Source of the DNA: Ruditapes philippinarum
Lineage: Eukaryota
DNA: 64,000 bases
Direction of reading: 5' to 3'
NCBI RefSeq assembly: GCF_026571515.1
Contig: NW_026857129.1
Span: forward strand, 1 to 64,000
The notes under the pieces were generated by a model. The model did not search any database. It was not told the origin of the DNA and saw nothing but the letters and a program-made list of their open reading frames with translations. Shown here one piece after another: positions 2,379-50,300 of this stretch. The position numbers and the translations under genes were made by a program. Positions within the stretch are counted from its first letter, which is position 1, and each line of letters begins with the position of its first letter.

Positions 2379-2482
2379 CTGTTGACGATTTAGTCAACGA
2401 AGAACATGAAGGGGAATTTGAAAACATCAGCTTTGAAAGGGCGACGGAGACTTCAGTACCAAAAGAATGGCTTTTCCAACTG
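2379..2482 (+). CDS. PARP14-like exon (phase 1-0), probable C-terminal half of an upstream RRM
   Basis: cattgtag|CT GTT GAC ... CAA CTG|gtaagc; encodes AVDDLVNEEHEGEFENISFERATETSVPKEWLFQL. Confidence 0.7.
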
Positions 2483-5400: not shown

Positions 5401-8400
5401 TGAAGCCATGATCTTCCCTGCTGATGGCACCCTCTTGAATTTCTTCGGTGGGGGTGCGCCAGGATGCTTCCACTGCATGCTTTTTTATTCTGGATAGAAG
5501 TGATGGACCCATGTTTCATCCTGAGTTACGATCCGGTAGATAAAGTCAGGTTCATCCTCGTAGCGAGACAAAAGATATCTTGAAATGTCAAGCCTGGTCC
5601 GTTTCTGATCGTCAGTCAACTATCTGAGGACTCATCTAGCGTAAACCTCTGACACGCCATAGACATCAGTCAGAATTGCCTGAACTGAACCAAAGCTTAT
5701 ACCCACTTTCCAAGCAACGCTTTGCAGGTCTCGCCTTCTGTCGCACATGACCAGATCGTGCACAGTTTCGGCAGTTTCATCGTTGGTGGCCTCATGTGGC
5801 CGCCCAGGCCGCTCATCATCTCCAATGCTCTCCCTGCCCTTCTTAAATTCACCAGCCAATTTTTTCACAGTGCTATAGGAGCGGGAATGGATTCCTTGGG
5901 TGACATCACTTTTCTTACAGAGGTACTTAATGACGGCTCTGATTTCAACTTTCTCAATTTGTTCTAAATGAAACACCCTTCTTCTGATCAAATTGTGTTT
6001 TATGTTACTTTATGTGAGTAAAACCGCGTGTAACTCGATCAGTAATCTTGAAAATCGGTATCGACGTATCGTGTGCAAATGTGAGTGAAGTGGCTTCAAG
6101 TAATTCGGGCCGAGAACTTTTTGATCATACCTCGTACACTACACTACACTTGAAGAAACTTATAAGTGTCTCAGTAGAAAATTGCAAATGTTTTTTAATA
6201 GTTTGAAAATTATATATACGAGTAATTACAAAAATGTACATTTGTGTATATAGATATATATAGGAATAAGAACAACTAGGCTGTTTATCATGCAACGGCC
6301 GTTTTCAGTTGGGAGACAGGTACGAGTTCTTTCCAGTGAACAGCTCAAATGTTCTTTTTTTTTAAGAGATAGCGCTTACTATGTATTAAATATTTTCCAA
6401 TCAATTAAATTTACATTATTTGAATCTTTTTGTCCGGCCGAAGGCCGCTCTGTTTTTCAGTTTCATTTTCTGTAAAATTTACAGGGAAAAACTGAATACA
6501 AGAAGAATTTTTATTGGTCATTTTAAAATAACATGAAATCTTGGAATCTCATTGGCCATTCTAAAGTAAAATGTAAAGAATAGTTCTTGTCATTCTAAAG
6601 TAGTTCTAAACGAAAATGTAAAAGGAAAATTTTAAAATAAAATGTACAAGATAGTTCTTTAACTTTCTAGTTAAATTACTCAGATATTTAGATTCTGTTT
6701 ACAATACATTTTATAGTGGGCAGCTTGTTTATTTTACGCAAGAACTTATGGATTTTATTTTACACAAGACTTGAGTTTTAAATTTCGTCCAATATAAGGA
6801 TAATAATATTGGAACTTATCAGGTACCCTTAGTTTATGATGTTCAGTAAGTGTCTTACATATTTTATGATTACTGATATGTTCAATTGATAAATGTTTAT
6901 AATTTTAATAAAGTTTTGCATATTATGTATTTATAGAAATAATTGCCTAACCGACCTCGCAAATGTTGGTGGAAAAAACTGAGTTTATTAGTTTGTTTAG
7001 AAACACACACATCTAAAAGTGTTCCAACTAACACATGCAAGTTAACCAGTTTTACTTCGGCCGAGTAATTTTTCTAGAGATATTTCTTGTTCCTAACCTT
7101 TGAGAAATGCAAACCTTCCCAGATGACCAAGACAGAAAATAGCAAAACCTGCTAAAACATGGGACGCCACAGCTTGTAAATTATTGTTCCCTTTTGATGA
7201 TATCAATTATTTATGGTAATGCGCTCATGTGAATGAACAGCATGTTCCACATAGCTCTACTTAAAAATAGTAAAAAATCTGTTTAAACCAAAACGCTACT
7301 ACATTATCTTAGACCCTCTTCTGTAATCGGACTATATGATCAATTAAAAGTGTATTTTTTAAACTCAGTTATAGTCAACTTCAAATAATAAATTATTTTA
7401 GATGTCTCAGGCACAAATGAAACACCGTTCACATTAAGAATACGAGGGCTGCCAGCAGATACAAATCAACAATACTTAGATTTGTATTTCAATGACGATG
7501 ACCTGTTCGGAGATTGTAAAATATGTAAAGTGTCCCTTGAAACAAACGAAACATCAGCTCTTATTTATCTAGAAAGCAAGGAAGGTAAGACAAATCTTAA
7601 ATATCGTTTATCATTGTGATTTGTTGTTAGCTGAATGAAATATTTGATTTAAATTTACAGTAAAAATACAATAATGAATCTAGATCATTTCACTGATGTT
7701 GTAGAGACAATAATAAGAAATGTGTAGAGTTTGCGCATCTCGTTGTATATCATGGTGACATTAAGTCCAACAGATACTGTAAAGTATGAAGGGCATCAAA
7801 CACATAAACTATCTTGGCACTTGTAGCAGCTAGCAAAGCAATCTTTGCTATTAGTTTTTCTTTCGTGGAGCAATCTTTGCTATTAGTTTTTTTTGTGGAT
7901 ATACAAGACTTAAATGGCTTGTTTTATAACTACTTCAGCATAGGGTGTCATCGTTAGTTATGATACACTCATTGAACTGAGAAGAAGTACAATAGATCCC
8001 CGCATTATTTACAAAAAAAACCCCAACAAAACAAACCATTTAAGGCCGGACATGGTGTATCTTAATGTTTCTGAAAATTAGAACATTAAACTGCTACAAA
8101 ATGGATGTGTTTGAATGATTGTTGGAAAAATATTTGGAGATAAGTTGACAGTACTAAACTATTTAGGTACGAAAATCCATATGATAGACATGAATAGAGA
8201 AATAAATAAAATAAAAATAAAAAATGAATATTTAAATAAATCTATTGTATGATATTGTCAATAAAATTTTAAGATGCTTCTTCAATCATCAGTTAATTTA
8301 TAGTTATTGTCATAGAGTACGCTATCAAAAAGTATAATAATTCTTAATCGTTTTTTGGATTTGCAAATCATTTAGCTAAATGTGTATCTGAATTATTGAG

Positions 8401-11400
8401 TATATTATGAGTTTTGGGTCAATTTAGATATTATTTTGTAACCCATATGTCAACTACATTGAGCGTTCTCATCACACTTTTGTTTGTATAAATATTCCTT
8501 TCAGAGATCGTTGATCTTTAACATTTAATAAAGAATTTCTATAGATTTAGAGAAAATCAAGGAAATGGCGCCACTAGATATGGACGGTACAATGGTGTCG
8601 GTTGAAGAGTATACAAGTGTTTGCAATGAAGAGCCAACATCCGTTCATCTGCACACCATTGAAGTCACAGGACCACCAAATTCCAGTATCATATCCGAAA
8701 GAAACAAATCACTTTTATCGATGTACTTCAAAAATTCGAGAAAATCGGAGGGAGGAAAGATTTCTGAAATAAAATTTGAGTCAAATAAGGCTTTAATTCA
8801 ATTCGAAACTGAAGAAGGTATTGTGAATAACTTAAGTACAAGTATAAGAAGAATGTTTCATAATTTTGAATCAAAGTAATTTTATTGCACATAAGTAGCA
8901 GAAAAGTATAAATGTAAATGGTTCCTTCTTTGTTTACATATACATCTGCATGTATGTATTGTTCAGTTTTATATAGAAAACCCCGCTAGATATTTTTCAA
9001 CCATGTCTGGATTGATTATCGTAATTAATTTTGAATGTTTTCAGTTGCTCAAAGAGTTGTTGAAAAAGAAAGCCATCGTTTAAGTGGTGTTGAATTGACG
9101 GTAAAATTGTACAACCCACCAATAGACAAAATCGTTGAAAGTGAGCACGAACAGACTTCAATAGTTTTATCAAATCTACCAGAATCGATTGACGCCCAGT
9201 ATATAGAACTCTTTTTTGACGATGAAGAAATATTTGGCGAAGGTTTAGAGGTATTGTTGGTAACATTTAATGACGATCATTCTTCTGCTATTGTGGAGTT
9301 TAAAGACAAAGACGGTAAGAATTCATTTAAGAATTTTTGCTTCACTTGTAACATTTTCCTTAACTTATAGTATCTTCACATAATATCTTATTTGCAAGGT
9401 TGCGTGAAATTATTTACCATTTTTGTTCCATTTAATGTATTTTTACGAAATAATTTTGTTTCGTTTCGTTGGGGTTTTAGACACTCTGACGCAGAAACGG
9501 ACTTTCCAGCTATACTGGAAGAGGATGATGAAAGGTGTTTTTTCCATGCTAGAGAGGGTACCTGACCACCTACCTTTCATAAGCTACCCGGATAACTTCC
9601 TCACATGATCGTGAATCAAAGTCCCTTGCGGGATTCGAACTCACAGTGGTGAGGGGCACGTGATTTGAAGTCACGACAAACTCGGCAAAGGACAGGTCTA
9701 AACGTAGAAAGACATGCCTGGTGTGTCAACTTAGACATGCTGCGTATGTTAATATGAAATTACCCTTGATGAAGTATTTTCCTATCTATGTTTAATTATG
9801 TACCCTTTGGTTTGTCAGTTTACAATTCACACAAACCTACTATTCTGTAAGAAATTTATGTACTTATTTGCCTTATTCAGCTACACATACCATTGCATAA
9901 TATCTAGAGTTGTTCAGGAAAATAAATCCATAATGATTTTAAAATTCCATTTTATTTAGTCCCGCCCCTTGTTTTTTCGTTTAGGGCACACGCATTGTTT
10001 TACTTGGGAATCATACGCCGTTTTTAATGGAATGTCACTTCCGTATCACTTTGAAGGTTCCATGATAACCGCCGTATAAAGTTATCTGCGGATGTTTCAA
10101 AATTCCAAATTTCACCATTTTATGTCAAATGTTGAATACTGCTTAAGCCGGTGATAGGAGGCGTGAACGCTAACTTGCACTTTACTATACCGTTCATGAA
10201 CAGCCCAATGAAACCGAGCCGGCAACATTTTCAATTTGTCGTTTTTTGCGTTCTTTGTGTTCTTTCAGGGTTATTTATTTCTCTTTATTTTATGTATTTT
10301 TACGCGTTGATTTTGGTGTTTTATATTCTACATTTCAAGTTTTGTTACTAAATGTATTCAACTTCAGTTGTAAGCAATATATCCTAAGCAAGGAATTATC
10401 TTTTTTAATTGTCAAAGCTGCAATAAAGGTACTGAATGGACCGTCTTTAAAAATGGAAGATCGTGAAATAAAAATACAAACCTATCTACCTGAAAAAGTG
10501 TGCAAGCCAATACGGAATGGTATAGAAGTTCATGGGCCACAACATATCGTCTCAGACACAAACATCAAAATGTTGAAAAAATATTTTGAAAGCCAGCGGT
10601 TTTCAGGTGGTAGTGAAATTATTGATTCTTCCATATGTCCTGGATTGGCATGTTTCACTTATGTGAGCGAAGAAGGTATTTATAATTGATCAAACAAGTG
10701 TTTATTTAAAATCTAAGTTGTATTGTTTGGAAATATTTACCAGAGACTGATTTAAGTTTCGAAATTTTTTTCGTTAGTTTTGGTAATTTATTACAATTAA
10801 TCTATGGATTGTAATGATAGTATATAGTTATGCATAATTACGACTCGATGTTCTTGTTGTAAGTAATGTTGGATTGCAATCGCGAAGTTGCAATTTCGAA
10901 TCCTCGATTAAGCATAAGTGAAGAAACAACATTTGTTTTGTTTCTGATGTCTTTTTCTTTATTTTTTATGTATTTGATGTATATAGGGTTTATACCTTCA
11001 AACTGGGAAGTTGCAAGTTCGAATGCTCGATTCGTTTCCGATGTCTAAACTATTTTGTTTTCAATAATATGCAGCATAAGTGGAAATAACAATCGTTTTA
11101 CTTCCTTGTAACTGAGGCTAGTGAGACAAGTGTTGTGGTTTTATCTTTTAAGTCATTTAAGTGTTGTAATTAAGGAAGTAACAACACTTTAGGGAAATTT
11201 TATATATGTTTATAATTATTATTCTTAAACAATTTTCAAACATCCAAGAATATGTTAAATATGTACTGCAAAATTTATTCGCATTATAAGTAATCAGTAA
11301 GATATATGCATTCATTTCTTACTGAAGAATTAGGTTTAGAATTTATCGAAAATAAATTTCTAATTACCTCCCTTTATCTACATGATATGTAAATTCGGCA

Positions 11401-14304
11401 ATAATTTTACAAATAATGCTCTTTAGAACTAATAATAACTAATAATAATGATAGATCTGCATTTGAACATCATATTTATGATATTAACCATAAACAAATG
11501 AGTTACAGGATCTTTCAGTTATGCATAAAGCATGCATACTGTTATGCCATATTGTAAATCCATATGATTTACTTCGAAGTCGGCTTAATACCGACAAAAG
11601 GCCATTGAACATTCAAATGTCTCAGGTCAATATTGCCAAACAAAAATACATTTGAAATGTTTAAAGTATTACTTTAGCTACTTTAATAATATGTTATTCG
11701 TAATGATAGTGTGAAAGCTGAAAGCATCTCGAATGAATTGTCATGTTTAAAAATATTACATGAATAAAAAACTATTGTTTACTGTTTAACAGTTGCCAGA
11801 AGAGTTGTAGATCGAAAACATACGTTTAAAAATCACCCACTTGACGTTAATTTGAGAGAAATGAATAAAGTTGACAAACAGGGTCTACATCCATCAGCAG
11901 ATAAGTCTCTCAACACAATAAATGTCCTAGGAATCCCAAAAGAAATTGACAAGGAGTACTTGATATATTTCTTTGAAAATCTAGATGATGACATAGAAGT
12001 GAAAGAATTATCACTTTGTGATAAAAGTAGAAGAGCTACTATTGAATTTTCAACTTTAAAAGGTATATCATTTTCAAAAATAAAAATGCTTTGCAACGAC
12101 ATAATTCTTTGTTGTATTGTGATGAAGTCTTCAAACTGGTACATGTGTAACTGTATGTGTGGTTATACCATTTACAATTAACTTTGACCCAAACAATTTG
12201 TTTCTCTATTGTCTACATATGTTTTCATCAATATTATTATAGTTATCTAATATCAAATTTATTTTCATCACATTGAATCGTTTTGTTTTATAAAATCGCT
12301 TATCAAATAATTAAAGAGTTTGTACTAATAAAAAAGTAATATTAAATAAAGTATCCCTTCAATCGCTTGTATATTGTTTTGCTAAAAATCTTGCGGCTTT
12401 TAATGAAACTTTTTACTTAAATGAATTTTTAACAATTCACATATCCTATCTAGCGGTACAAATAGTTATGGACAAAAAGCCTTTAAACATAAAAGGTACC
12501 GAATTGATAATTGAGCAATGGAAACCGATGAAAATGTGCACAATATCTGTACAAGGGCCAGATGATATTCAACAGTACATGGATAAACTGGAGCTTTATT
12601 TCAAAAACAGAAAATCGGGAGGAAACTCCAAAATAATTGACAGCTGGGTAGACATGGAAAAAGATGCAGCATTTTTCACTTACGAAGAAGAAGCCGGTAT
12701 ATGATTTAATTCAAATTTATTCTTACATTTTATTTCACTATTGTAAACTTTAACATCGGGGCCTGAGTTAACATTTGCTTAGTGGTTAAGGTCGCCAACT
12801 TAAAACCACTGTTGGTTTTAACCCCGTCAGAAAGTCGACATATGGCCTTTACAGTGTCGGTATATCATTGAAACAAAACCGAAAAAGAAATAATTCTTTT
12901 TATTTGATTTTAGTTATAAATACAAGATTGCATTTGAGAAAAATGCTATGCCACCGCATTAATACCTAAGCTCTAGGCCTTTTGGGCATTTACAAGAAGG
13001 TATTTTAAGTTTTTGAAGCCTTGTACCTTGTACCTACAGACAATAAGATGACCCCAGGGCTATAATTTGAACAATCTTGCTAGAGGTTCACTACACAATG
13101 TTTCATGCAAAATATCTAACCTCTAGCATTTGTCAATTGCTAGAAGAAATTTTTTTAAAGTTTTTATTATATACATATAACGAAAACCAATGACCCCCGG
13201 GGCAGGGCCGATTTTGACCCCAGGGCTATAATTTGAACAATCTGGGTAGAGGTCTACAACACAATGCCTTATGCTCTAGGCCTTTTGGGTCTTTACAAGT
13301 AGGTATTTAAAGTTTTTACTATATGTACATATAGTGAAAATCAATGACCCCCGGGCGGGGCCGATTTTGACCCTAGGGCTATATAATTTGAACAATCTTG
13401 GTAGAGGTCTACCAGGCAATGCCTTATGCAAAATATCTAAGCTCTAGGCTATTTGGGTCTTTACAATAAGGTATTTTAAGTTTTTACTATATGTACATAT
13501 AGTGAAAATCAATGACCCCGGGGCAGGGCCGATTTTGACCCCAGGGCTATAATTTGAACAATCTTGGTAGAGGTCTACCAGACAATGCCTTATGCAAAAT
13601 ATCTAAGCTCTAGGCCTTTTGGGTCTTTACAAGAAGATTTTTAAATTTATTCTTATAATTCCTTTTGGTTGCCATGGCAACCAGATTTCTGCATGGAATG
13701 AAATTCTTTGAACAACTTTGGAAGCCCTTCACCCAAGGATCAATCCTGCCAAGTTTGGTTGAAATTGGACTATTGGTTTTCACAAGAAGATTTTTTACGT
13801 TCACTATATAATCTATATAACAATGACCCGGGGCGGGGCCTATTTTGACCCCAGGGCTATAATTTGAACAATGTTGGTAGAGGTCTACCAGACAATGCCT
13901 TATGCAAAATATCTAAGCTCTAGGCTATTTGGGTCTTTACAATAAGGTATTTTAAGTTTTTACTATATGTACATATAGTGAAAATCAATGACCCCGGGGC
14001 GGGGCCAATTTTGACCCCAGGGCTATAATTTGAACAATCTTGGTAGAGGTCTACCAGAAAATAAATGCCATATGCAAAATATCTAAGCTCTATGCCTTTT
14101 GGATCTTTACAAGAAGATTTTTTAAATTTATTCTTATAATTCTTTTGGTTGCCATGGCAACCAAATTTCTGCATGGAATGAAATTCTTTGAACATCTTTG
14201 GAAGCTCTTCACCCAAGGATCAATCCTGCCAAGTTTGGTTGAAATTGGACTAGTGGTTTTTCACAAGAAGATTTTTAAGTTCACTATATAATCTATATAA
14301 CACA

Positions 14305-14368
<64 letters not shown>

Positions 14369-17300
14369 AATCGCTATATGCCACCGCATCGCAGATGCTG
14401 CGGTGGCATAATAATACGTCTTCGAAATATTTTTTTAGCTTCTTTTTTTCAATAAATGTTTTTTTCTAAACAAATGAAATAATTAAATTATCTGAATCAA
14501 AAATATATTCATGAATTTTATAAATTATGTAATGTAAACATTGCATCTAAAAGCAGATTTTGGATTATTTTTGCACGTCGTCAATAAAGATACAATTACA
14601 TAAAAACACTCACATGCATAAACTTTACACTTCATGACCAATTTTAAATTTCTGGCTTCATTAAAAATCATTTCTTACTGATGGAAGACAATTCTCTTCG
14701 TACCCGAAAAATGGACAGTATTACTGCCTGTAGTTTACCAAGATTTTATATCATGGAACCAGGCTAAAATTAAATCATGCATAAACACGTTATCTCCATC
14801 TAAAGGGGAACTGTTTAGCATTTGAACAAAACGCATCGGTGGAAGTGCTATTGCATTGTACTGTCATTAAACATCTGAATTTTAAAATATATCCATTTGT
14901 TGACTTTAGAAACTAAGAAACAAGTTCGTATTGAAGAAATTTAAAGTTTTGTATTTTGAGATAGTTTGGATAGTGCTATGCCGACATAGTTCTGGTTTCA
15001 AAAACTTAAATAGCCGCCTTTTATATAATAAAGCGAGCTCACACGTATGCTGATTTATTTTGGTAAAATTTTGTAACGGGTCTGATGCCTTTTATATACT
15101 ACGTTTATACTCAAATTTGATCGTTCGTCATTTGCTTATTAAAAGTTTTAATATATCAAGTAGTCGGGATAAAATTGAAAAATGTTCTAGGCATTGTAAT
15201 AAAACATTACGAGCAACACTGTCTATATATATACATAGTGTAAATATTTAATATTTAAATTTTAGTTGCAAAAAACGTAGTCCAAAAGGGGCAACACAGA
15301 TTGGGAAAACAAAAGTTGAACGTTCGTTTATGTACCGAAACGATGAGAAAAGATACTTCAAATGAACAAGATCAAGAGTTCTTTACTGAAATAAAACTTC
15401 AAAATTTACCAAAACAAGTGACAGAAACGCACCTGAAGGTATTTCTCGAGGGTCAAGATATGGCAGAAGAAATTGCAGAATTCAATGTTGTAAATGTGGA
15501 TCTTCGGCCTGGAAATGATTCTGCAATTATTGAATTGGACAATCCTGAAGGTATAAAATAAATATATAAGTATTTGGTAAATATGTTTAAACAATTGTTG
15601 TACATTTTCTGTTTAAATGGTACTAAATAGTTTCTACTGAAAAAAAAAATATAAAAAAATCTGATACGAGTTCACTAAACATTTCAGTTGCAAAACTTTT
15701 GTGTGAAAGACGCACACTTCATTTGAAAGATGTTGAAGTATCAGTGGAACGATTCATACCAAGGAAAGTTAATTCATGTACAATAGCAGTTTCTGGGTTG
15801 CCAAGAATTGATGAACAACTTGAACTTCTTGAAATGTACTTTAAAGGCAAGAGGTCAAAAGGCAATTCACAGATTGTTAATAAATGGGTAGACCAAAAAA
15901 GAAACGAAGCGTATTTTACTTACCAAAGTAAAGAAGGTTTGTTATTTCTACTAATTGACAGTAAGACATCATGGGAGCAAATTATATTTGTTTGCAATTT
16001 TAATTTAATAGTTTATATTTTGATTACATGCGATTTAATTAAATATATTGTATCATATCAAACATTTGTTTTAACGCGCCCAAACAGCATAATAAGCTTT
16101 TTTTAATTTGAAGTATGAAAGAGCAATGTAGCTCTAAAAGAGTGTAGACAGATAATGTTTCATGCATCTTTAAATAATAAATGCGTCGCATTTACGGGGT
16201 AATTGATTATATGTAGCTACACATTTATGTCAAATATTTTTAATCGTTTTTGATTGTAGTTGCTGAACGGGTTGCTGCCAAAACAGATCATGTGTTTGAC
16301 CGACATACTTTGAACGTTTCTCTGTTTACGGAAGACAACATGAGTCATGATTTAACGAAAAAAATACGTGTTTCAAAACTACCAGATGATATTACAGAAA
16401 TGTACTTACAGACGCTTTTTGAACAACAAGAAATGCCATTTGACTTCAATGTTGTCAGCGTTATATTGGATTCCAAAGAAGCTTCTGCAATTATAGAGTT
16501 TGATTGTCCCGAAGGTGAATTTTTAATACATACACGATAACTGCACGCAACTAATAAAGCTATATTTTAATTTTGATACTATAAAGTATACATTTTTTTC
16601 AAAGCATAAAGACTGTTGTACCGCTGTTGTCATACTAGTTTTCCATTTTGTTGATATTATAATTCAGGTGTAAATAAAAACTATCGATTAATTCTACTTT
16701 GGTTTGACATGGTGCAGGCGGTCTTGAGATATGTATAAAAAGGCCGGTCAGATAGGAGAGTTTCATTTCAGTCTGAGCACACAAAGGCCCTCGACGTAGT
16801 AAGATCATACCAGTTGAGAAACAATCAGTAAATTATCTTCTCTGTTCATTGCTACCGGAATTTTAGGAGCTTTTTATCTCTGCATACATGTTCATTCTGG
16901 ATATGCTAAAACTATATTTTCGAGGGCTACACCAGTGAATATTTTGTCGTGGATGCCCGGCCAGAGTTAACAATAAAAAAATTTGCCGTGGCAGCAACCT
17001 TGCGGATAAGATACGAAATAGGTTGTAATTAATCAATGTAAACGCTATTAAACGTGGAAGTGGTCTATATGAATCGTGACAGACGAAATGGTCCTTTACA
17101 AAACTTGTAAATGGTCCATATTTGGACAGGAATGATATAATATTTTCCGGAACGTGAAGTTTTTTTTATCAGTTTTGTACATTGTGCGCCATTTCTGCAC
17201 GATCCTTACTTCAAACGTAGATGGTTGATAGCAGGCCCTTTCTTAACGTTTCAACTACCGTATACGACGGTGTTTACCATTTTGCAGGTGGTTTATCGTA

Positions 17301-20300
17301 CGCTGAGTTCTTCTACGATCTGGCCAGGTGTGAGAAGTTAAACTGTTTATAAAGAGGCTAAGCCCGACAGGAGATCTTCTCCCGCTCCATCACTAACATT
17401 ACTAACGTTATTTTGCATTAAAACTTAAGACCCGAAGTTCTTTGCATCGGTAATCATAATTACAAAATTACATAAAATGTTTGTTGAGACTTGTTTCTGT
17501 TAACTGACTAGAAAAATTCATAGTTCAGTTGTTTGAAAAGTAACAAGCCGTCTTATTATGATATCACAGGGTTTAGGTCGGTTTATCAAGAAAATTGTAG
17601 CAGAATAAATATATGTGGTATGTCGATGTGGCAGGGTGATTCTTTCTTCATCATGAATATTCTTTTGTTATTCAGTGCGTGTGAATTTAACTATGATAGA
17701 AACATCTCACTGTGGAATCTTGCGGCGTTAATTGTCGTAAATACATGAAGCAGTGTCGAAAGAGACACGTGATCTTACAAATAAATTTCAGCGTATTTAC
17801 AAGTAAATAATCCAAAATTATCACACTATCCTACTGTGATACTATGTTGTTAAGGTTGTACGAATTGAAACATGACTAAGTGTTATTTTGGGTGTTTTAA
17901 AAACAATTTCAATTCCAATATAATACAGTTTTGAACTAGAATACTGCTTATACTGAAGTTAAAGGGATGAAATACCTTGCACTTTTCATCAATCTTATGA
18001 ATTTTATGGCAAGTTTTGCCAATTTCTTGGAATAGCTTTAAAAGGTTAAATGAAAAGTAAACCTAAAATACGACAAATAAATGTTCAGTTCAATCTGTGC
18101 TTAAGACAATTAATATTGCGATGTTCGATATAATGATATACTAGTGTAATTTAATAACTAATATTACCAACAATAACCAGAGACAGTTTTGAATAATGTT
18201 AAGTCTTTCAACATTTCCTAATTTGGAAAGTTTTAAGGTGCCGTTAGAAGTTATATGATTGTATTTACTTTTCTTAAAAAAGCATGAGCATAGTTATCAA
18301 GGTTTATTATTGTATAGGTCCCTTTGCTTCTTACTTCATATTCTGTAGTGTGATTTCCTTATTTTATTCTTGAAGTTTGCAATGTTATAACGATATCATA
18401 GATCAATGCATTTGATTGTTTCAGCTGTTTCCTTCATGCTGACGAGGAAGCCAATTACGATAAAAGGAAAAGAAATTGAAATTAAATATTACGTGGAACA
18501 ATGCAGCAGTTTATGTTCAATAGAGGTCACAGGAATTCCAAACATTGAAGACCATCTTGCCAAACTATTTCAGTACTTCAATAACAGTCATAAGTCAAGA
18601 GGAGGGAAAATTGTTGAATATTATGCTGAACCAAATTCAAACAAGGCATACTTTACATTTGAAAGTGGGACAGGTAAGGCGCAGAAAAAACGATTACTTC
18701 ATAGTAATAATATATATCTTAGTATTTTTATTGGCACTTTTTGAAATAAGTTTGTTTTTTATAAAGGATTATTAAGGTACAAAAGCAATGACTATATTTA
18801 TTTACATGATATACAATGAATCTAAATGGACGTAGTGTTTTTTTTTAAATATAAAACGAAATTTCATGCAAAATGGCAAAGATCATAAGATAATCAATGC
18901 AAAGTAATGTTGCTTCCTTTCCTATACATCAATAATCATTTGGCCTCAAAACTTGTTTTTCAGAGCTAGAATATATCTGACTATATAAATATATGTAACT
19001 AAACTAAGTGTGTCGTCTTTTTGTTTAAAACAAGTTGCTGAGAGAGTTTTACTTAAGGACCACTCACAAGTTTGGAAGGGAATACAACTGTCATTAGTTC
19101 GTAATAATAAACACGAAGAGGATGAAGTCCCTTCAAACATGATAAGGGTATCTGGTATTAGAAGGGTGGCAAGAGAAACACTCAAGTATTATTTCGAAAA
19201 TAAATTGGCATCCGGTGGCGGAAGCATTGCAGCTATTGAAGCTGATCAAGAAGATGAAGACGTGATTTACATTCAGTTTTCTGAAAAAGAAGGTAGGTAA
19301 AGATAAGTTCATATTTAAAATGTTTCTTGCAGTTATCATAATTTCGCACATCTTTTTGTAAATTTCGTAAATTGTAAGTATGCCTTAAAATAAATTGAAA
19401 TACCATAAAAAACAACAAACAACAACAACAACAACAACAACAGTAGATTAAAACATAAACAACACTTCGATAACGACTTCTGTATTCAACTGATATTAAA
19501 ATAGAAGGACATTTATAGAAATTATACACAGCTTAATTCATGTCACTATTTTTTCAAAAAAATTATGATTATGTTAACAATAAACACCATTGACCATGTA
19601 TAGTTATTACCATTATGCACATAAGTTGCTGAGTGTGTTGCTGGAAGAAGTCACGAAGTCGAGGGACAAACTATCAAAACACGTATCTATAAATCACCAC
19701 CTTATTACGATACAAAGGTTTTGGTAAAAGGAATCGCTTTGACAACTACAAAGGACAGTATTTTCAATTTCTTAGAGGCAAAAACAGGAATAAAAGTGTT
19801 ACAAATTGCTTTTAGTGAAGAGGACGACAATGTTATTGTTGTGACAATGGAGAAACCGCCAGGTTGTATATTTTTTCTGATTTAAAAGCGTAAGAATATC
19901 TAGTTATCAATAAAAAAACAGTCATAATACGAGTAAGAGGGGTGATCGGAAAGTTCATAGGAATTTCATACAGCGTCATTATTATTGGCGTCCGCGCCGA
20001 AGCGCGACGCCCCTTATGGAATGAAATCAGATTTTGTGAAAGGGCAATGGCAACTTCTCGGGCCTTTAAGTCTGGCATAATAGACGACCATTCCGGTTTG
20101 TATGAGGGTGTTTGATTATTAAAAATGAAATGTCGCGATATGTACAATAAATAGCGAACTTGAGAATTTCGCAATGCAAACATATTCAAATGAAATAGTC
20201 TTTTTCTGTAAATTAATCGCGCTCTTCGGGTTTTTTTTATTAATCATTTTGTAGTACACTGTGGGTTATTATGTATGTTATTGTTGTACATGTATCCGAA

Positions 20301-38300: not shown

Positions 38301-41300
38301 AGCAAATAAAAGTGACATACGGCGATTTTTACGTCGTGCAAAAGTATCTACCACAACGTCAGCCTGAATCCCCCTGTCTCTGTGAATTTGCAAAAGTCCT
38401 AAGCCCGAGAGACGACCAGTGGTCATTGTTGACCGCAAGAACGTCTTCAGCCTTCTCATGCTGCTAAATGAACGTTCAGCGCTAGCGGTAGACACTGGCA
38501 TTGCCAGGTGCAAATGGAGGCACCTGTTAACATTTGGTTACAGCTCTGTCGGTAAATCCTGTAGCACAGATTCTATTGTTGACGGAGCCTGCAACATCGA
38601 AGATTCGCACCGTGTCTCCCAGCATCCACATTTGCACAAAAAGGTTTTCCCGATCGTCCACCAAATCCTCTTGTACGATAGAATAAATTTCATCCATCCG
38701 TTGACAGTCCAAGTCGACTACCCTGTCTGGCAAGAGAAACTATCCATCGTATCCATCGTTATTCTGAAGAAGGCGATTTTCTATCTTGGAAACAAGGTGA
38801 TCCACCAATGGCAGATACATGTTGATCCGCCAGTACTCTAATGGAGTTTGAGAGGGTGCATTAGGGCGATTTTCCCAGTGCTTAATTTATTTATTTATTT
38901 ATGGGCGAGCGTTTTCATTAGTATCATTTCATCAATTTTTAAATTTACAGAAATTAATGCCTTTTCTTCTTATTTTAGATTTTTGTTTCTCAATTTACGA
39001 ATCGTTACGAACTAAAAACTAAGATGTTATCAGTTACAACGCAGTCATGACTGTCATCTTTGCTCAATGTTCGCGTAGCAGTCAAACGTCTGCATGATAT
39101 CATCTTCGCACGTGGTTCTGTTTCTAGCGCCACAATGAATCGCTTGGAAGTGACTGTCATTTACTTATAAAACATAATACAAGAAAACTTATTTGTTTTG
39201 AGCGAATATGCATATATCACACGGAAAATTGTGCTACGCTTTTGTTGCAATTGTTCATATCTCAACCTGGTATATAGCATATTCATTCAATCATAATAAG
39301 CATATATCATCTAATTCTATGCAATTTGGTTCCACTGTGTATAAGCAGTAAATATTCATATATATTCGTGTTAGTTCTTTACTGAATTTATTTAACGAGT
39401 TGAATAAAATAATATTTTGCTCCCGAGACATAATATTATTTTTTTTCAACTCGTTCAATAAGAATATATTCAGTATTTGAATAAAACAATGTTTTCCTCG
39501 CAAGAGGCTCGCTTAATATGATTTTATTCAACTTGTTCAATAATTTCAGTATTGAACTTACACTAATTCATTATCCTCTACTTATCACATAATCGTGTTG
39601 ATTTTAAAATTTGATTTTTTTTTCATTGACGCGACTAAAGTGTTAAAGTGTGATAGAATGACGTTATGGTTATAATGCTACTTTACATGTCATGAAAAAC
39701 AAGAGACGTTATGTGATTTATTTAATAATTTTATGATATGTTATTTTGTATGTTTATGACCATATTCAACGCATATTTACTTTATGCCTATACATGTGTT
39801 GAACTAAAAGAGATATACAAATATATATTTTTAAACTTACACAATAATGAATAAAAGAACTCAATATACTGTAATGTTTATCTGTACCTAAGAACAATAG
39901 CCATTTGCTTCATGGTCGCTGCATCTGTGGCCTTGTCGAATGGAGCGACGTTGCATGCCTCCACAATTGTTTTACTGATGATCTCGCCACATATAGAGAT
40001 TAACTCGTTTTGGATTTTTGGCGAGGTGTATTTCGTACGAGGATTGCCGTTTTCAAGGTGGTCTCGTAAGACTGTAATATGCTTTGCCTGAGGTTGAAGA
40101 ATAGCGGCGAAGTTACTCCTGTCGTCTTGGTGACCCCGAATCGCAATATTCTGCCTTCCGCACAATATCAAAGTGTCCACAATAGCAACTAATATTTTCC
40201 GGTTTTTCTCAACGGTCTGTTCATGTGCGCTCGATAGACTGCATACTATGTCCTTTTTGTCTCCGGTTATCACAGAAATAAAGTTGTGGGCAGCCTCGCA
40301 GGATTCTCTATGCAATTTTGAAACTGCATGAGCTTGAATGGTTTTTCCGATGTTGCTGGGGTCGACTAGAGGGACAGTTGCGAGTGATTTTTGTTTAGAG
40401 ATTTCACCTTTACCACTGAATAAACAAGATTGCATTTGAGAAAAATGCTATGCCACCGCATTAATACAACACTAAATAGTAGTGTAGGAACAGATTTTTT
40501 TTGTTTCTATACAATTGAAGATTGTCATAATGCATAGATCCCTGACCTATCTAATTCTTATTATCAGATTAGTGGTTAAATCTATTGTTAATCCAATAAA
40601 AGATCAGAGTAGGAATATATCAATGCACTTGAGTCTAGTGAATTTGGTGGTGAAGGTCATATTTCACACAGCCTAAATTTCATGACTACATCAAAGGACA
40701 ACACAGTAAGACACTTTGTCAAAATCTAGGTCAGCTGATATCAAAGTTCACTTTACATCTTAATCTGTGCACATGGTTCAAATTTCATAGCTGTACATCA
40801 AAGGACAAGAAAGTAGGTCACATCATCAAAATCTAGGTCACCTGATATCAAAGTTCAATTTTACAACTAAAACTGTGCACATGGTCAAAATTTCATTGCT
40901 GTACATCAAAGGACAAGAAAGTAGGTCACTGTCCCCTTGTGCAAGGAAAAATTGTGACCCAAGGGTTTAATTCAAAACAATCTTGAGACATGTCCACCAA
41001 ACAACATCAAATATCTAAGCTGAAGCTTTCTCCCATTCAGTAAACATTTGTTTTATTTTCTTTTTTACTATGTGTACATAATGAGAATAACTGCCCCTGG
41101 GCAGGGCCAATTTTGACACCAGGGGAAAAATTTGAACAACTTTGGTAGAGGACCCATAGATGATATTATATAATATAGCAAACATCACAGATCTATGCCT
41201 TGTACCTTCAGACAAAATATTTTTTTAATTTTTTTACTATATGTTCATAATAAAAATCAATGACCCCCCGGGGCGGAACCAATTTTGACCCCAGGGCAAT

Positions 41301-44300
41301 AATTTGAATAATCTTGATAAAGGTTCACTTCGCAAAGTCACATGCCATATACTTAACCTCTAGTCAAATATCAAAGCTCTAAGCCATGTACCTTCAGACA
41401 TTAAGATTTTTTAATTTTTCACTAAATGTACATATTGAAAATCAATGACCCCTGGGGTTTGGGCCAATTTTGACCCCAGGGCTGTAATTTGTACAATCAT
41501 GCTAGAGGTTCACTACACAATGTTTCATACAAAATATCTTAACACTAGCCTTTGTAAATTTAGAGATGATTTTTTAATTTTTTACTATATACATATATGG
41601 AAAACCTATGGCCCCCGTGCAGGGCTAATTTTGACACTAGAGGCAAAATTTGAACAAATTTGGTAGAGTACCTATAGATGATATCATTTTACAAATATTA
41701 AAGCTCTAAGCCTTGTACCTTTTTCTATATTTATATATTGAAAATCAATGACCCCCGGGGCGGGGGCAATTTTGACCCCAGGGCTATAATTTGAACAATC
41801 TTGCTAGAGGTTCACTTCACAATATTTGATTCAAAATATCTAACCTCTAGCATTTGTCAATTGATAGAAGAAATTTTTTAAAAGTTTTTACTATAAGTTT
41901 TACTTCACTTCAGTGTTGTTATATTTTCTGGTCCTTCGGGATCATTGATGCCAACACTATAAAGTGTTGAGAATTGAGTACCGCTCAAGCCGGTGCTAGG
42001 GGGCGTGAGGGATGTTGCACTTATTCATTATCCCTCATGTACAGACTCAATCAAACCGAGTCTGCAATTCTTATGTTATTTTGTTGTGATTAATGCTTCC
42101 GAGGGATCACTTTGTTTCCAGAATTTTTTACTACATACATACATAAGGAAAACCAATGACCAACGGGGCGGGCCGATTTTGACCCCAGAGCTATAATTTG
42201 AACAATCTCGGTAGATGTCTACCAGACAATGCCTTATGCAAAGTATCTAAGCTCTAGGCCTTTTAGGTCTTTACAAGAAGGTATTTGAAGTTTTTACTAT
42301 ATGTACATATATTGAAAATCAATGACCCCCGGGGTTGGGCCGATTTTGACCCCAGGGCTATAATAATTTGAACAATCTTGGTAAGGGTCTACTAGACAAT
42401 GCCTTTTGCAAAATATCTAAGCTCTAGGCCTTTTGGGTCTTTACAAGAAGGTATTTTAATTTTTATGTAAAGGGAACTATAGGCCTAGCGATACTTTTTA
42501 ACTAACAGAGATAGGTCAAAAACATTTGTACTTAAATACAAACAACTAGATTCTAGACCTAGCTCTAATCTAGTTAATCAATCACAAAAGGTTAATAAAT
42601 ATAAGCCCCATACTTGCTCGGAAATGCGTAATGATGAACAGAGTCCCATTTTGCGTTTAGAAGATGGGTCTTTTCGTTAGCGTCTAGTGACTGCTTCAAG
42701 AAAACATCTCCGTAACAAGGGTCACAACATTTATCGCTCGCCATTTTAAAAAATAAGCGCGCTATGTAACGTTTTAAGGGGAATATCATTGATATTTTGT
42801 TCACATTTGCTTCAACTATTACCCTGTAAGCCATTAGTCTGCACACAGCAATACATGTATTAGAATAATACTTTAACCATCTTTGGGTTTCCATTTTATC
42901 TGTTTGCAAGTTTTACTCTTTTTTTATGTACAGGATTAATCATGTAATAATGTTTATAACTTTCTATATAAGAATTGATATCTAAAGATATACCTGACAT
43001 AAAATTGTAAAATCTATTGAAATAAGTAGTAAGAAGTTACAGATTAATGGCATAATATGATATACTTATAATCTTAAAAGAAGCTGTCCAAGGCTTTTGA
43101 CCGTGGGGAAGGTATGCAATAAATATCTATCATTGTAACAAACAAGTTGTATGATCTCTGTATCTTTAAATCGTGAATCTATAAATCGTTCATCAATATA
43201 TATTGATTTACAAGCAAGAAACAATATAAGATAAACCGTCAAACACCAGCGGACTTGGAAGCAATATGGATACTTTACTAGCACTTGTAAATATGCTACT
43301 CAACTTTTACTAAGCACCATAAGTTTTTTTTATTATCACAAGTATAAAACATATTTCTTTTCAATTTTTGATAATTCCTATTTAGCAATGTTTTGAGATA
43401 GTCCCTTGACATGACTCCTTGTTGACTTATCCATTACAACTTGTATTGGTAGCATAAAAAGCATGCACCCCCATATTTTCATGTTTTTGATGGGGTGTAC
43501 AATCATATGACTTTTGTTATACTGCGACATTACCGGTTAAATGTCATTGAATGGCTTACATTTCTTACATCTGTCACTTTGATAAGGCGAATGCTAACAT
43601 AAGGCGGTATTTGAGAGAAGTAGAAGTATGGAGGGCTGTAGGGATGGTTCAGCTTGGGGCACCTTCCGCCAGGTAGGTGCGGCGCTCGGTGTACACCACA
43701 TAGTCTTTACCAGAGCCTGTGAGATATACTGGCTACATGGTGCACCCGCTAGGAGGCATGCTGGAGGCAGGCAAAGGGTCGCAACGCCAGCTCAGGACCG
43801 GTTTATGGTTGTTAAGCCACGTCGAGAAATGTTTTCGACAGCAACTTCTTTTCGAAATGACATTGCTTATGCTGCGGAGGTCCGTGTTTCCAAGCAAACG
43901 GTACGTATAAGGCTGCATGAAGGTGATTAGTGTCTAGAAGACTTTGCATACGTATCCCCTTGACGCATCGACATACAAAGTCCCGTTTGGAATGGACCAT
44001 GGAACATTCACGATGGACCATGCACACTGGAGACTCGTTCAGTTCACTTATGAGTACAGGTTCTGCCTAGACTTCGCAGATCAGCGTGCCACAGTCTGGA
44101 GAAGACAAGGTGAACAGTTTCATGCTGCAAATATTGCATGACCGCTACGGAGGTGGGTCAGTTGGTGTGGGGAGGTGGCATCAGTTTTGATGGACGACCT
44201 TGCTGTGCTAGAAAGAGACACATTGACAGGTCAGCGCTACATAGACGACGTGTTAGACTACCAGGTTAGGCTGTATGCTGGAGCAGTCAGTCTGCGATCA

Positions 44301-47300
44301 CTTTATTTCAATGGACGATAATGCTCACCTTAAAGGACCAGGGCGGTCCAGGACTACCTAGCGAGGGAGTCTATTGAGCGCATGGACTGGCCAGCTCGCT
44401 CACCTGACTTAAATCCAATAGAACACATGTGATATGTGCTGCAGGTTAGAATTTCAACTCGTCAGCTGCAATCCAGCTTGGAGCTATGTTGGTCCAAAAT
44501 TGGGCAGCCATACCCGTTAGAACGATCAGATACCTAATCGAGAGTATGAGAAGATGCTGCCCAGCTGTCCTTGATAGCCACACACACGGTACTAAGTATA
44601 AAACTTAAAAAAACACCAGAAGGAAATAACAACAAAGTAACAATTAAACAAATTTGAAAAACACGCTGCATGTTCTGAAAACTTCAAAGTGGGGAGGGGG
44701 GGTCATCCTCTTCTTTAGCACAAAATCAATGTAAAATTAATTTATAGGGATAAAGTCGTCCTTCAGCTGAATTGATAAAAAAGTAAATCAAAATTTAAAC
44801 CTTTCGCACTGATTTTAATTTGTTTGTTTGTTTGTTTGTTTCATTTTACGCCTTTTTCAACAGTATTTCAGTCATATAGGCGGGTAGTTTCCTAACCATC
44901 GTTCCTGGAGAGTTACACCAGTACTAGACAACCTTCCTCCGCGCTAAACTACCAAAGCATCTCCCGGGGATCGAACCCACGCCAGAGAGGTAACTGGATT
45001 AGAAGTCATCGACTCTAACCCCTCGACCACGGAGGCGGTGCACTGATTTTAAAAAATTAAAGTCAAAGAATGGTCACACTGAAATATATGGTGCTTAGCA
45101 AAAGTTGAGTAGTATATAAACAATCCAATCATCGTTATCATCGTAGTAAAAGTTATAGACGCCTTAAAGGAAGGCATAGTAGCAAGAAAAACACATACAA
45201 AGGTCCAATGCAGCAAGAAATTATATTTAAACAATTCAGACCGAAATGCCTTAAGAACGGTCCGTCATAGAGTGTTCCACTTGATCCGGTCTGTCAGAAG
45301 CAACCAAAATAGGAAAGCAACAAAATAACATGAAGTTTGCTGACCCGGTTAGTGTCTGTACATGAGGGATAATAAAAGTGCAACATCACTCACGCCCATC
45401 TAGCGCATGGTATTCAATTTAACAAAGTCAAGCAATTCAAAGCAACGACTTTAGAGCAATAATCCAGAAAGACAGGACTTGCAACAGGATTGAGTCAAAT
45501 ATGAATCAGGAATTCAGGGGTCTATTTTTCTTTAATTCGTTTTCATTGAATTGAACGTTGATTACCTAAAAACTTACACTCAGTACATTGTCCTTCATTA
45601 TATGTTATATTATATACAGTACCTTTCTGTAAAATGAATGACATGTTATAGATAATTGTCCGAAAGTAAATTCAAACTTTCTTCTTAAATTGCAGACTTC
45701 ACAAAGTTTAAAGAGGCATGCCGACTTAACACTTTGGAAGGTGCAAGGCTCACGATTGATAAAATACCTATATCTAGCTGTATTTATCTTGCAAACATTT
45801 CTCCTGAAATAACAGAAGATACTCTGAGATATTACTTTGAAAGCAAATTTGGAGAAAAGGGAAAAGTTGATAAAGTACTTTTGACCAAATCAGAGGGAAT
45901 TTGTCTAGTTTATTTTGAAAATTACAAAGGTAACACAAAAATTCTCAAATGTTAAACTGTATAAAAATCGGTGAATAACACAAGTAAAAGCAATGCATAC
46001 TGTATTACATACTTATTATAATAATAATCCATATTGCTTTTGCCTTCGTCGTCTCCGTTTGTCTGTCCACTCGCATTTAAAGTGTCCGGGTTTCACATGT
46101 CAATTTGCTTGTGGGATTTTGACGAAACTTCACAGGGGTGATCAATACAATACCTAGTTGTGCATATTGTCGACAAGTTCCACTTCCCTGTACAAAATAG
46201 CTGCCAGAGTTAGAAATAGAAAATCAATGATGGCTGTGACAGGTAAATTGCCTGGCGGGATTCCTCTGAAACTTCACAGGAGTGTTGAGTACCAACCCTT
46301 GTTATGCGTATCTCTGGAACGTTCCTCTTCGCTGCAGAAAATGGCCACTAAAGCTAACAACAGAAAAATATTGTCTGACTGTCACAGGTCAAGCTGCTGG
46401 AACCCTACGGGGTTGATCTGTACCAGTCTTAGGTGTGCTGTAGTCAGCATTTTCCGCTTCACTGCACAAAATTGCAACAAGTGATAAATATTTGAAAAAC
46501 CTTGACAAGCTTTCACAGGTCAAACTGCTTGGGAGACTTCGACGAATATTATACTAGCGTGATCAGTACAAACCCTTGTTGTGCATATCGCCGGCACACA
46601 ATTGTTGCTAGATTTGAAAATAGAAAATCCATGCCCTTCTTTCACAGGTGAAAATGCTTGCGGCATTTCGACGAAACTTCATAAGAGCTGTCAGTATAAA
46701 CCTTCGTGTGCAGATGTTCATCACCTTCTGCTTCGCTGCAAAAAATGGCCACCAGAGCTAAAGACAAAAATCCTTAAAAAGGGCTTAAAAAAGAAAAATC
46801 TTATCGGGTTGTCACAGGTTAAATTGTCGGCAGGATATTGGCAAAACTTCACGGGAGTTATCAGTACCAATCCATTGTATGCATATTGCTGGCATGTTCT
46901 GATTTACTACACAAATCGACTACCAGTTATAATGACGGCAATCCTTATCTGTATTTTACTGCGGGTGGGATTTTGGCAATATTTCACACAACCATTGCCG
47001 TGCATATCGCTAGCATGTTTTGCTTAGCTGCAAGAATTGACTGCCCGAGCTAAGACTAGAAAAATCCTGTCCGGCTTTGACAAGTAAAACTTCTGGTTGC
47101 ATTTTCATGCCGCTGTTCTATCCTTCGAGTACATACGTGGGAGACATTTATTATTTTTTGAGAAAAAAGCATTTAAGTTGTTTTTCAAATTATAAATAAG
47201 CGTTAAAAAAATAATATTATGACATTTACAAACAGCAAAATTGAAAACAGAAACGTAATAGTCTGACAATAAGTTTTAAATTATTTGTTTATATATGACG

Positions 47301-50300
47301 CAAAGNNNNNNNNNNNNNNNNNNNNNNNNNNNNNNNNNNNNNNNNNNNNNNNNNNNNNNNNNNNNNNNNNNNNNNNNNNNNNNNNNNNNNNNNNNNNNNN
47401 NNNNNNNNNNNNNNNNNNNNNNNNNNNNNNNNNNNNNNNNNNNNNNNNNNNNNNNNNNNNNNNNNNNNNNNNNNNNNNNNNNNNNNNNNNNNNNNNNNNN
47501 NNNNNNNNNNNNNNNNNNATATTTTCAGTTGTCAATAGTGTTTTGGAAATGAAACATACTCTCGGAGGCAGAGAACTAAAAGTAAGCTGTTACCAAAACC
47601 TACTAAAGGGAACTGAAGAAACACATGAAAGAGTTCTTAAAGTGCCTAACCCGATTGACTTGTCAAATACTGCACCAGAAATAATACAATTTTGCCATAC
47701 CGTACCCTTTTATAGAACGAAATTTGAAAAAGAAATGTCAGAAGTGTATGCAAATATAGTGTGGCCAAAGAAACCAGCAGATAAAACATTTATAACGTGT
47801 ACGCTTGATTTATCCGTCCGTGGTTGCTTTAAACATGCCAAGACATGGCAAGAACGAGTTGAGAAGAAAATTACCATATTATTGGCAGATCTGTCCTTTA
47901 CACAAATTGACGTTCATACATATATTTGGGAAAAACTTATTGGTTATGTGCGAACAATTTCAGTTGACAAACCACAAGATGTGCAAATATATCAGATCAA
48001 AGAAAAAAATGTCATTAATATAGTAGGGAGAAAAGAAGTTGCAGAAGAAGTAAAACAAAAAGTTTTATGTGAAAATGAAAAGCTCGAGCAGGAATATGAG
48101 AAAGACCGACAGAAAGTTAGGGAATATATGCGAGGATTTCAGCCAATTGAGGTCAGACTTATGAACGTTACAAATACAGCTCAAGTAATACAACAACATT
48201 TTGATGACTTAACCATAGAAATCGACGATGAAGAAAACGCTATAATATTTGAGGGTCCCTTGCATTCCGTCAAGGATGCTCAAATAAAATTTTATGAGAT
48301 GAAAAACAATTTTGGGCGGAAAGAAGTTGAGTTATTTTCAGACATGTTAATTTCAATGTATCAGTCAAAAGAGGCTGTTAGTTTCATCCAAAATCTTCTT
48401 CAAGAAAGTGGCTTACAAGCCTTGTGGGAAATCAGGAATTCTTCCCTTATAGTATGTTGCACACAGAACAAGATGCTCGAAAAATGTGCTGAAATTATTT
48501 TAACAAGCCTTGCAGAAGAACGAATTGAATATAATGCTGAATCTGTTCCTGATATGAAGGCCGACAGTTGGCGAAGAACACAAGACAATTTACGTATCAG
48601 TTATAAGGGGAACGTAGAATTTAGTACTGAAGAAAATATAGTTATTGTCTGTGCAACTAAGGATATACTTGCGACAGTCATTTCAGAAGTAAATAGGTTT
48701 ATAGATTCAAAAACGATACTGTCAAAGTTCTTTTCTTTTCCGAAAGATGTAATAAGGTTAATTGAAAAGCATCATAAATCAGACATAACTGCTATAACAC
48801 TAGAACTCAGTGCATACCATGTTGAAATATTAATGGCCGAAAATTACAGTGGCATGCAAGTGCATGGGTTAGTCCTTGGAGTAGAAAAAGCATCTATGCA
48901 GTTACAAAAATTGTGCAACAGAGTAAAGAAAAGAAAACACACCATCAGAAAACCTGGTGTTGCTGATTACATTGGAAAAGCTAAGGGGAAAGACAACATA
49001 AATACGGTTGAGACAGTTTTGAAATGTATTGTTTCGATTGAGGGAGGTGACCAGGGTAATAAAGAAGTTGGAGAGAAACGTGTTGCCGCCGAATGTACTT
49101 TTCTGGATGGCAGAGTGTTATTTGCATTTGTCGGCGATATGACGGAGCTTGAAGTTGATATGATTATCAATCCAGATGATGAAAAAATACATTTCCATGG
49201 TGGCCTTGGAAGAGCCATAATTTCTAAAGGTACAAACGTTATTTTTTAACTCTTATTCAATAATATTTAATATAAATCGCGCTAAATACAAAAAAATACA
49301 AAATCATATGTGGATGCTAGTTATAAGTAGGTTATCATTTTGATTACAAGTACATTGCAAGTTGGCCAAAAGTAACCGCACAAGCTTATTTTAGAAATTA
49401 AAGAAACAATAGCTCAAAATTATAGTTTACTTCTTTAAACCGAACACCTGTGGAAATGTTTAAAAGAATTTGGATTTTGGATGTTTCCGGAACTCAAAAG
49501 CTCAGAAAAATCTAAACAAGTATCATAATTAAACATAAGTTGTTTATGTAAGTCATGCTGAAAAACATAGTCGATAAATTTAATAAAATATCAAAATATG
49601 AAATTCCTTAAAATGTTTATGAAATTTTATTATCACCAATATTTGACTTTGTTTATACATAAGCATAAAGAAAATTATCAAACTTTATCCTTAAAGATAT
49701 TTAATAGAGTTCCAACTATTAACCTGTATTTTTTCACAAAATGTTTTTTTTTCTTTAATCGAGGGGTTGACATACTTGACAGGCTGTGACTGTAAAAGGT
49801 TTTAGATTAATTAGTCACTGCTATTTAGAAGGCAAAGATATTTTGTAAGTGCGATTATATCAAATTCTTTTATGGAAGTAGATTTAAATTGATAAAAAAA
49901 CATACAAAAAAGCAAATTTTTACCAGAAAAAAGGTTATGAATTTAGAAGTTGGCATAATTTACAGTTAAAACTTTTATGACAGTGAAAATTGATCGAATT
50001 TCAGATTTTTCTAAATATCCGGGAGTTACACTGTAAAAATGTTAATCTTATTACCACAACAAGTAATACCATAAGGATAACAAGCTATGTATGATAAAGA
50101 ATTGATATGACTTTAAATGTTTGAAATTAATAGTTGTTACTCTACTCACTCTTTTCAAAAGCTGCCATCTAAATCATTGAGATATTCTTTTTCAGAGTAT
50201 GTCAAATTATTTGAAAGCGTGTATTTGTTGATCCTATAAAACTTTTACTCTGATTGTATGTAATCTTGAATGTTTAAGCTATTTGCTTACAAATTTAGCA

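Follow-up and report, generated by a model that had tools for sequence, protein, structure and literature searches.

A conserved phase-1 intron and the probable DNA-level growth of the RRM array in a PARP14-like gene of the clam Ruditapes philippinarum

The locus and its gene

The window analysed here is the whole stretch of 64,000 nucleotides (nt) at positions 1 to 64,000 of contig NW_026857129.1 (forward strand; assembly GCF_026571515.1) of Ruditapes philippinarum. It carries a PARP14-like gene (XP_060594497.1, hereafter P0001; 2,770 amino acids), and the subject of this report is the unusually long array of RRM domains that the gene encodes. The NCBI model holds the translations of all 13 RRM exons of the window in order, and the KH exon that follows them (E14) is 100% identical to P0001. 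By Pfam, the protein is built like PARP14, with RRMs and KH domains and then three macrodomains, a weak WWE domain and a PARP domain; there are matches to RRM_PARP14_1, RRM_PARP14_3, KH_PARP14_1, KH_PARP14_8 and NID. The Macro family matches three stretches of P0001, and macrodomain exons also lie within the window. The PARP domain (E 8.8e-20) and the WWE domain sit beyond it, in the NCBI model, the latter falling below the Pfam cut-off in P0001 (20.1 vs 21.1 bits) and above it in P0002 (XP_060608587.1). P0002 is a second copy in R. philippinarum, either an allele or a paralog, which is 82% identical to P0001 over the RRM array and about 88-94% identical in the KH, macro and PARP parts; within the array, identity is 81% over E1-E11 and 91% over E12-E13 (Fisher p 0.0014). 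With RRMs followed by KH domains, three macrodomains, WWE and a C-terminal PARP domain, the predicted protein is a PARP14-like macro-PARP, a label that is not new, as the gene is already so named by NCBI.

Exon limits were set from AG/GT sites and open frames. The 13 RRM exons, all on the plus strand, are 183-285 nt long, and every one is a multiple of three, AG/GT-bounded and of phase 1-1 (13/13). The first-pass annotation, made by a model from the letters alone, had described their length, frame and phase in these terms, and the splice sites and P0001 confirm it. E14 (1,701 nt) is likewise a multiple of three with phase 1-1, and E1-E14 joined give 1,654 codons without a stop. The array opens with E1 (7402..7584, 183 nt), which encodes the front (strands 1-3) of RRM1, of an acidic type termed B. 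From 8545 on, as exon translations and domain matches bear out, each exon joins the back of one RRM to the front of the next. Thus E2 (8545..8817, 273 nt) holds the back of RRM1 and the front of RRM2 (type A), E3 (9045..9314, 270 nt) the back of RRM2 and the front of RRM3 (type B), E4 (10418..10675, 258 nt) the back of RRM3 and the front of RRM4 (A), E5 (11793..12062, 270 nt) the back of RRM4 and the front of RRM5 (B), and E6 (12454..12696, 243 nt) the back of RRM5 and the front of RRM6 (A). The same order continues through E7 (15266..15550, 285 nt; RRM6 back, RRM7 front, B), E8 (15688..15936, 249 nt; RRM7 back, RRM8 front, A), E9 (16260..16514, 255 nt; RRM8 back, RRM9 front, B) and E10 (18425..18673, 249 nt; RRM9 back, RRM10 front, A). 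Outside the alternating block, E11 (19035..19292, 258 nt) holds the back of RRM10 and the front of RRM11, and E12 (19626..19862, 237 nt) the back of RRM11 and the front of RRM12, an RRM that groups with the second-last RRM of the Potamilus and Mytilus relatives. E13 (45696..45929, 234 nt) adds the back of RRM12 and the front of RRM13, the last RRM, and E14 (47529..49229) the back of RRM13, the KH region and the start of macrodomain 1.

Two further coding exons lie upstream, both placed by AG/GT sites and translated in P0001: the end of a degenerate N-terminal RRM-like unit (2379..2482, phase 1-0; weak RRM match at P0001 8-93, 8 bits) and a linker exon (2624..2690, phase 0-1). Downstream, tblastn of P0001 and Pfam Macro place seven more coding pieces of the macrodomain region, with approximate limits, in 50721..61265. 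The E12-E13 intron (19863..45695) spans 25.8 kb, contains decayed mobile elements and holds no hidden RRM exon.

An ancestral intron within the RRM fold

In a profile alignment, the exon profile ends directly after RNP1/strand 3 of the hnRNP A1 RRM. In an AlphaFold model covering the final three RRMs of P0003, a paralog (predicted local distance difference test score, pLDDT, 83), the equivalent residue 56 comes after strand E46-51, in the first turn of helix H54-61. Both place the intron just after the third strand, where it had been put at first reading. A Foldseek search with the P0003 model returned generic multi-RRM proteins and supports the fold only; a single-exon query against PDB sequences gave no match, and one alignment-based search returned 3 proteins only. 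The F/Y-x-x-x-E motif that had been read at the exon ends holds as a tendency (F/Y in 10/13 exons, final E in 7/13) and not as a fixed rule, and its supposed trailing G comes only from reading on into the donor as a codon GGT; after splicing, the residue is V, D or A. An RRM exon between two phase-1 introns after strand 3 is symmetric and off register with the domain. The shared phase does exceed chance, which would be about (1/3)^14 for independent introns; being copies of one ancestral intron, however, they are not independent.

Evidence for the age of this intron comes from a scan of metagenome contigs, which covered 37 of the 64 parts of the collection and used the last three RRMs as query, the 13-exon profile being too diverged. 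The scan gave 23 loci at 31-48% identity, of which 21 have introns; L001 and L002, which read through without an intron, were set aside, and units below 12 bits were dropped. A phase-1 donor GT stands at the same column in 53 of the 54 RRM units of the 21 loci (background GT 0.063), the single exception having its GT two codons off the profile end, and an acceptor AG stands at the matching place in all 30 units whose start is in view. These loci amount to seven locus groups and 26 distinct unit clusters. The 29 full metagenome exons are multiples of three by their definition, and this was not counted as evidence. On the two flanks of the intron, contig L001 is 100% and 99.9% identical to L009, yet it lacks the intron itself; the intron is therefore real in L009. 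The phase-1 pattern is family-wide and is present also in loci showing few units. Human PARP14 presumably carries phase-1 introns at the corresponding place in its three RRMs, after c.187, c.598 and c.835, positions that the rodent protein fits. As judged from these sequences, the intron, in phase 1 and behind strand 3, is an old trait shared by PARP14-type RRMs. The phase symmetry of the exons is inherited and therefore needs no splicing explanation, and a tandem copy of an exon has to possess it to survive. The result lists of a literature search held no description of this conserved intron together with the stretching of PARP14 RRM arrays, and nothing usable on published PARP14 or IFP35 exon structure.

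Two alternating RRM types

Type B and type A take turns along RRMs 1-10, and in a tree of five venerid proteins each has a clade of its own (ultrafast bootstrap, UFBoot, 91 and 98 for B and A, respectively). When domains were classified from the other gene lineage only, the front or the back half alone gave the right type in 44/44 domains, in a sample of five proteins and two lineages whose domains are not independent. Each half thus predicts the type, and front and back halves have therefore stayed matched. The A/B alternation with its register, as initially noted, is supported, each type having its own front and back half. Net charge ranges from -2 to -12 in B units and from -2 to +2 in A units. 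The array has 13 RRMs in P0001 and P0002 and 11 in P0003 and in P0004 and P0008 of Mercenaria, such that the venerid arrays seen differ by exactly one B-A pair; elsewhere, Potamilus has 6 RRMs, Mytilus 4 and the rodent protein 3. In the metagenome, L004:444-2723 packs five RRM exons into 2.3 kb; its first is B-like and acidic and its next A-like, and the B-A arrangement may predate venerid clams.

Probable growth of the array at the DNA level

The 13-exon profile retrieved 1,897 representatives at E 0.001 or better, and the unit statistics given here come from the best 150 of them, a selection that favours long arrays. Among these 150, unit number ranges from 2 to 15; six or more units are present in 38, and in 13 of the 38 two units spaced 1, 2 or 3 apart share 80% identity or more. 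Tandem units that are 97-100% identical, as singles, pairs or triplets, were found in P0161 (Lingula), P0022 (Patella caerulea), P0014 (Branchiostoma belcheri) and P0037 (Biomphalaria pfeifferi); the Lingula protein repeats a two-unit block, and that of P. caerulea has eight or nine similar single units. Such near-identical units may reflect recent expansion or assembly error. The PARP14-like proteins of Lingula, Patella, Branchiostoma, Biomphalaria, Haliotis and Mercenaria share the repeat unit of the clam in arrays of 7-15 units, and the full-length ones also share the downstream domains. While several of these arrays hold young near-identical copies, the best unit pair of the clam array is 43% identical at the protein level, and no nucleotide similarity is detectable among the 13 clam exons. 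By this measure, the clam array is old and diverged and not in a young-copy state. The first-pass annotation had also held that unequal crossing-over could change copy number. Array length does differ by whole exons between genes and species, which favours that view; present-day exchange between clam exons is, however, unlikely because they retain no detectable nucleotide similarity.

Symmetric tandem exons are also described in PMC3632108, where 108/118 highly similar neighbouring human exons share symmetric phase. The clam array has in common with these cases that symmetry is an expected filter on exon duplication; it differs in that its symmetric unit straddles two folded domains and does not hold one module or a disordered region.

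Splicing of the array in the clam and its relatives

P0001 and P0002 have one annotated model each, with all 13 exons in series. A six-frame reading of the window gave no unannotated RRM exon, a 213-base N gap at 47306-47518 being unread; this assembly gap ends ten bases before the E14 acceptor. In the 11 introns of E1-E12, no excess of shared or complementary exact words was found within this gene: 10-mers with a reverse complement in at least two other introns numbered 5, against 6.2 +/- 3.4 simulated, and 12-mers 0 against 0.07. The donors of the RRM exons match the U1 consensus at 5-8 of 9 positions and the other donors of the gene at 5-7 of 9. Mutual exclusion by crowding or frame was considered and ruled out, as the shortest intron is 137 nt, all introns are GT-AG and all exons are multiples of three.

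RNA reads were examined in four raw runs (X20-X23, from two studies, 4-12% of each) on 14800-20200, a region covering E7-E12 only. Depth in the exon bins never exceeded 0.34 per read direction, most bins having 0, and no splice joint appeared at such coverage, which speaks neither for skipping nor against it. Reads stacked up over repeats in the introns, at about 14800-15340 and 19870-20200; at 20049-20200, depth reached about 1,000 per direction in X20 and X21, from repeat reads of other origin. The scant reads on E7-E12 may reflect expression that is low or that needs induction, or else absence from the animals sampled. Among runs listed as containing the sequence, none is recorded as RNA, which carries no weight in either direction.

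Drosophila Dscam1, as portrayed in PMC6071210, resembles the clam gene in its tandemly duplicated exons of similar length and in a possible immune role. Nevertheless, Dscam1 picks exactly one exon per cluster via docking/selector pairing, while no such words were found in the clam introns. The likeness to Dscam drawn at first reading fails on architecture because the annotated model includes all 13 exons serially; as modelled, the clam array is not a Dscam-type mutually exclusive cluster. Nor does the phase pattern signal a combinatorial splicing system, as had been proposed, for it is ancestral and occurs in loci with few units as well, and the clam gene offers one annotated model, no spare exons and no docking/selector-like words. 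The accompanying point that any skip keeps the frame is supported, all exons being multiples of three with phase 1-1, and phase symmetry across all exons is a necessary but not a diagnostic property of a combinatorial cassette array.

Among relatives, 12 of the 17 clusters looked up have one member. In the annotation, four of five multi-isoform relatives (Mercenaria, Potamilus, Lingula and Patella vulgata) are without an RRM skip; what sets their isoforms apart lies at the ends, in a single residue or in non-RRM segments. P0009 (Mercenaria X3), P0006 (Potamilus) and P0165 (Patella vulgata X4) end before the PARP domain, which is a commoner isoform type than RRM skipping. For the abalone Haliotis rubra, seven isoforms are annotated (XP_046555935-42; P0167, P0172, P0024, P0171, P0168, P0169, P0170). 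Between them, isoforms X1, X3, X4 and X6 show each of the four in/out combinations that two RRM exons allow. These two variable exons are 86% identical, as young copies would be, and X5 fuses two exons mid-exon where a stretch is repeated. Such a pattern could also come from mis-mapping of reads or from a haplotype with a deletion. Separately, X1 and X2 differ by 12 substitutions confined to PARP-domain residues 2489-2579, which suggests alternative duplicated last exons.

Possible role of the RRMs and related systems

Canonical RNA-stacking aromatics are few in the 13 clam RRMs: RNP2-2 has one in a single RRM, RNP1-3 in none and RNP1-5 in four, and no RRM combines two or more of the three, so that none has the make-up of a canonical RNA-binding RRM. 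The columns of these motif positions were checked against hnRNP A1. Human PARP14, a macrodomain mono-ADP-ribosyltransferase, has, according to PMC13224862, 3 RRMs, 8 KH domains, 3 macrodomains, WWE and ART, and its RRMs are there called largely uncharacterised. The clam protein shares the order RRM-KH-3 macro-KH-WWE-PARP with it and differs in having 13 RRMs and a degenerate N-terminal one as against 3, ten of them alternating between the two venerid types. PARP10 RRMs drive RNA-independent oligomers via a basic-acidic interface, according to PMC13710856. In NMI and IFP35, NID domains oligomerise with a negative electrophoretic mobility shift assay, and the true NID fold, which is RRM-like, combines the second half of an annotated NID with the first half of the one that follows (PMC13196095). 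Likeness to these proteins is seen in the match of the exon profile to NMI (PDB 21NH, E 3.9e-05) and in the Pfam NID match on P0001. NMI and IFP35 are, however, small and without PARP, and the NID domain-swap hinge lies between strands 2 and 3 and not at the clam intron site.

Additional non-canonical RRMs may, more tentatively, add protein-protein valency, with B units, which are acidic, next to A units, which are near neutral and retain a basic loop. Because RNA-stacking aromatics are few, the units are acidic or neutral, and PARP10 RRMs and NIDs form oligomers, the gain from more RRMs would, by analogy, most likely be valency for protein assembly and not a set of spliced RNA sensors.

Repeats and mobile elements in the window

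The long intron holds a decayed non-LTR (long terminal repeat) retrotransposon at 31850-36430 on the minus strand, with an RVT_1 match at 33068-33415, and a decayed hAT-type transposase at 38298-40447 (minus strand; Dimer_Tnp_hAT and DUF4371 matches). A fragment similar to the retrotransposon appears near 630-970. Tandem arrays whose period is about 155-185 bases or a multiple of it lie at 13342-14302, 21671-23404, 30927-31492, 41179-42465, 54428-55671 and 58525-59771 and are probably related satellite families or families of the MITE (miniature inverted-repeat transposable element) kind. The intron repeats at 19980-20200 and 14800-15340 draw many RNA reads from elsewhere.

Weighing the explanations

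The best reading of these data, and a probable one, is that the array expanded at the DNA level and is spliced constitutively. An ancestral frame-preserving exon would have been copied in tandem, one, two or three exons at once; such copying would keep the frame, rebuild whole RRMs and account for unit numbers from 2 to 15. The block copied in venerid clams would have been a two-exon pair, giving four or five B-A pairs before three older RRMs, with all 13 exons then spliced constitutively. Several points weigh against this account. Four of the seven H. rubra isoforms in RefSeq (X3, X4, X5 and X6) are without one or two RRM units, in frame, so that skips at these very junctions do stand annotated within the family; the single annotated clam model may merely reflect thin RNA data; constitutive splicing of the clam gene rests on annotation and not on direct observation; the 100% identical copies in other species may be assembly artefacts; and the proposed valency role rests on analogy. 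A further alternative places the growth in the present, with exon number varying among clam haplotypes via unequal crossing-over within the array. The young near-identical copies in Lingula, Patella caerulea and Branchiostoma and the difference of 13 vs 11 units between clam paralogs speak for it; yet the dissimilarity of the clam exons described above, the same 13 units in the same order in P0002 despite its divergence over the array, and the 11 units common to one Ruditapes paralog and two Mercenaria genes make such ongoing polymorphism extremely unlikely.

Regulated combinatorial skipping would have cells leave out subsets of RRM exons, preferably two at once to keep A and B halves matched, and make many isoforms of an immune PARP that differ in specificity or valency. 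It draws on the frame symmetry of all 13 exons, on the type-matched front and back halves, and on the four in/out combinations annotated in H. rubra. The symmetry, however, is ancestral; the clam gene has one model, and no RRM skip is seen in four of the five multi-isoform relatives, one of which is the Mercenaria gene that shares the A/B block; the abalone exons are young, with a mid-exon join in X5 that fits mis-mapping or a deletion haplotype; and in their fit to the U1 consensus the RRM donors are on a par with the gene's other donors. We consider regulated skipping very improbable. In low-level, unregulated skipping, the gene would be spliced mainly whole, and skips of one or a few exons, at a few percent, would escape nonsense decay by keeping the frame and would have no selected role; all exons being multiples of three and the skips annotated in the abalone relative agree with it, though it too appears unlikely. 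A broader and decidedly doubtful conjecture is that invertebrate PARP14 genes use the off-register exon twice, as a genomic accordion of RRM number and as cassettes skipped in combinations, yielding hybrid RRMs that tune an antiviral PARP; the abalone would then be the first visible case, and the clam would skip its A/B pairs two at a time.

Significance

The durable result is that one conserved phase-1 intron cuts PARP14-type RRMs and lets the RRM regions of invertebrate PARP14 genes stretch from 3 units to some 15, with one, two or three exons added at a time depending on the lineage. Symmetric exons are expected in such repeat arrays. Regulated skipping, if true, would be a novel means of generating diversity in an intracellular immune enzyme, through hybrid domains. 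Natural arrays of varied length, together with the alternation of acidic and neutral units, offer a handle on the role of RRMs in this family.

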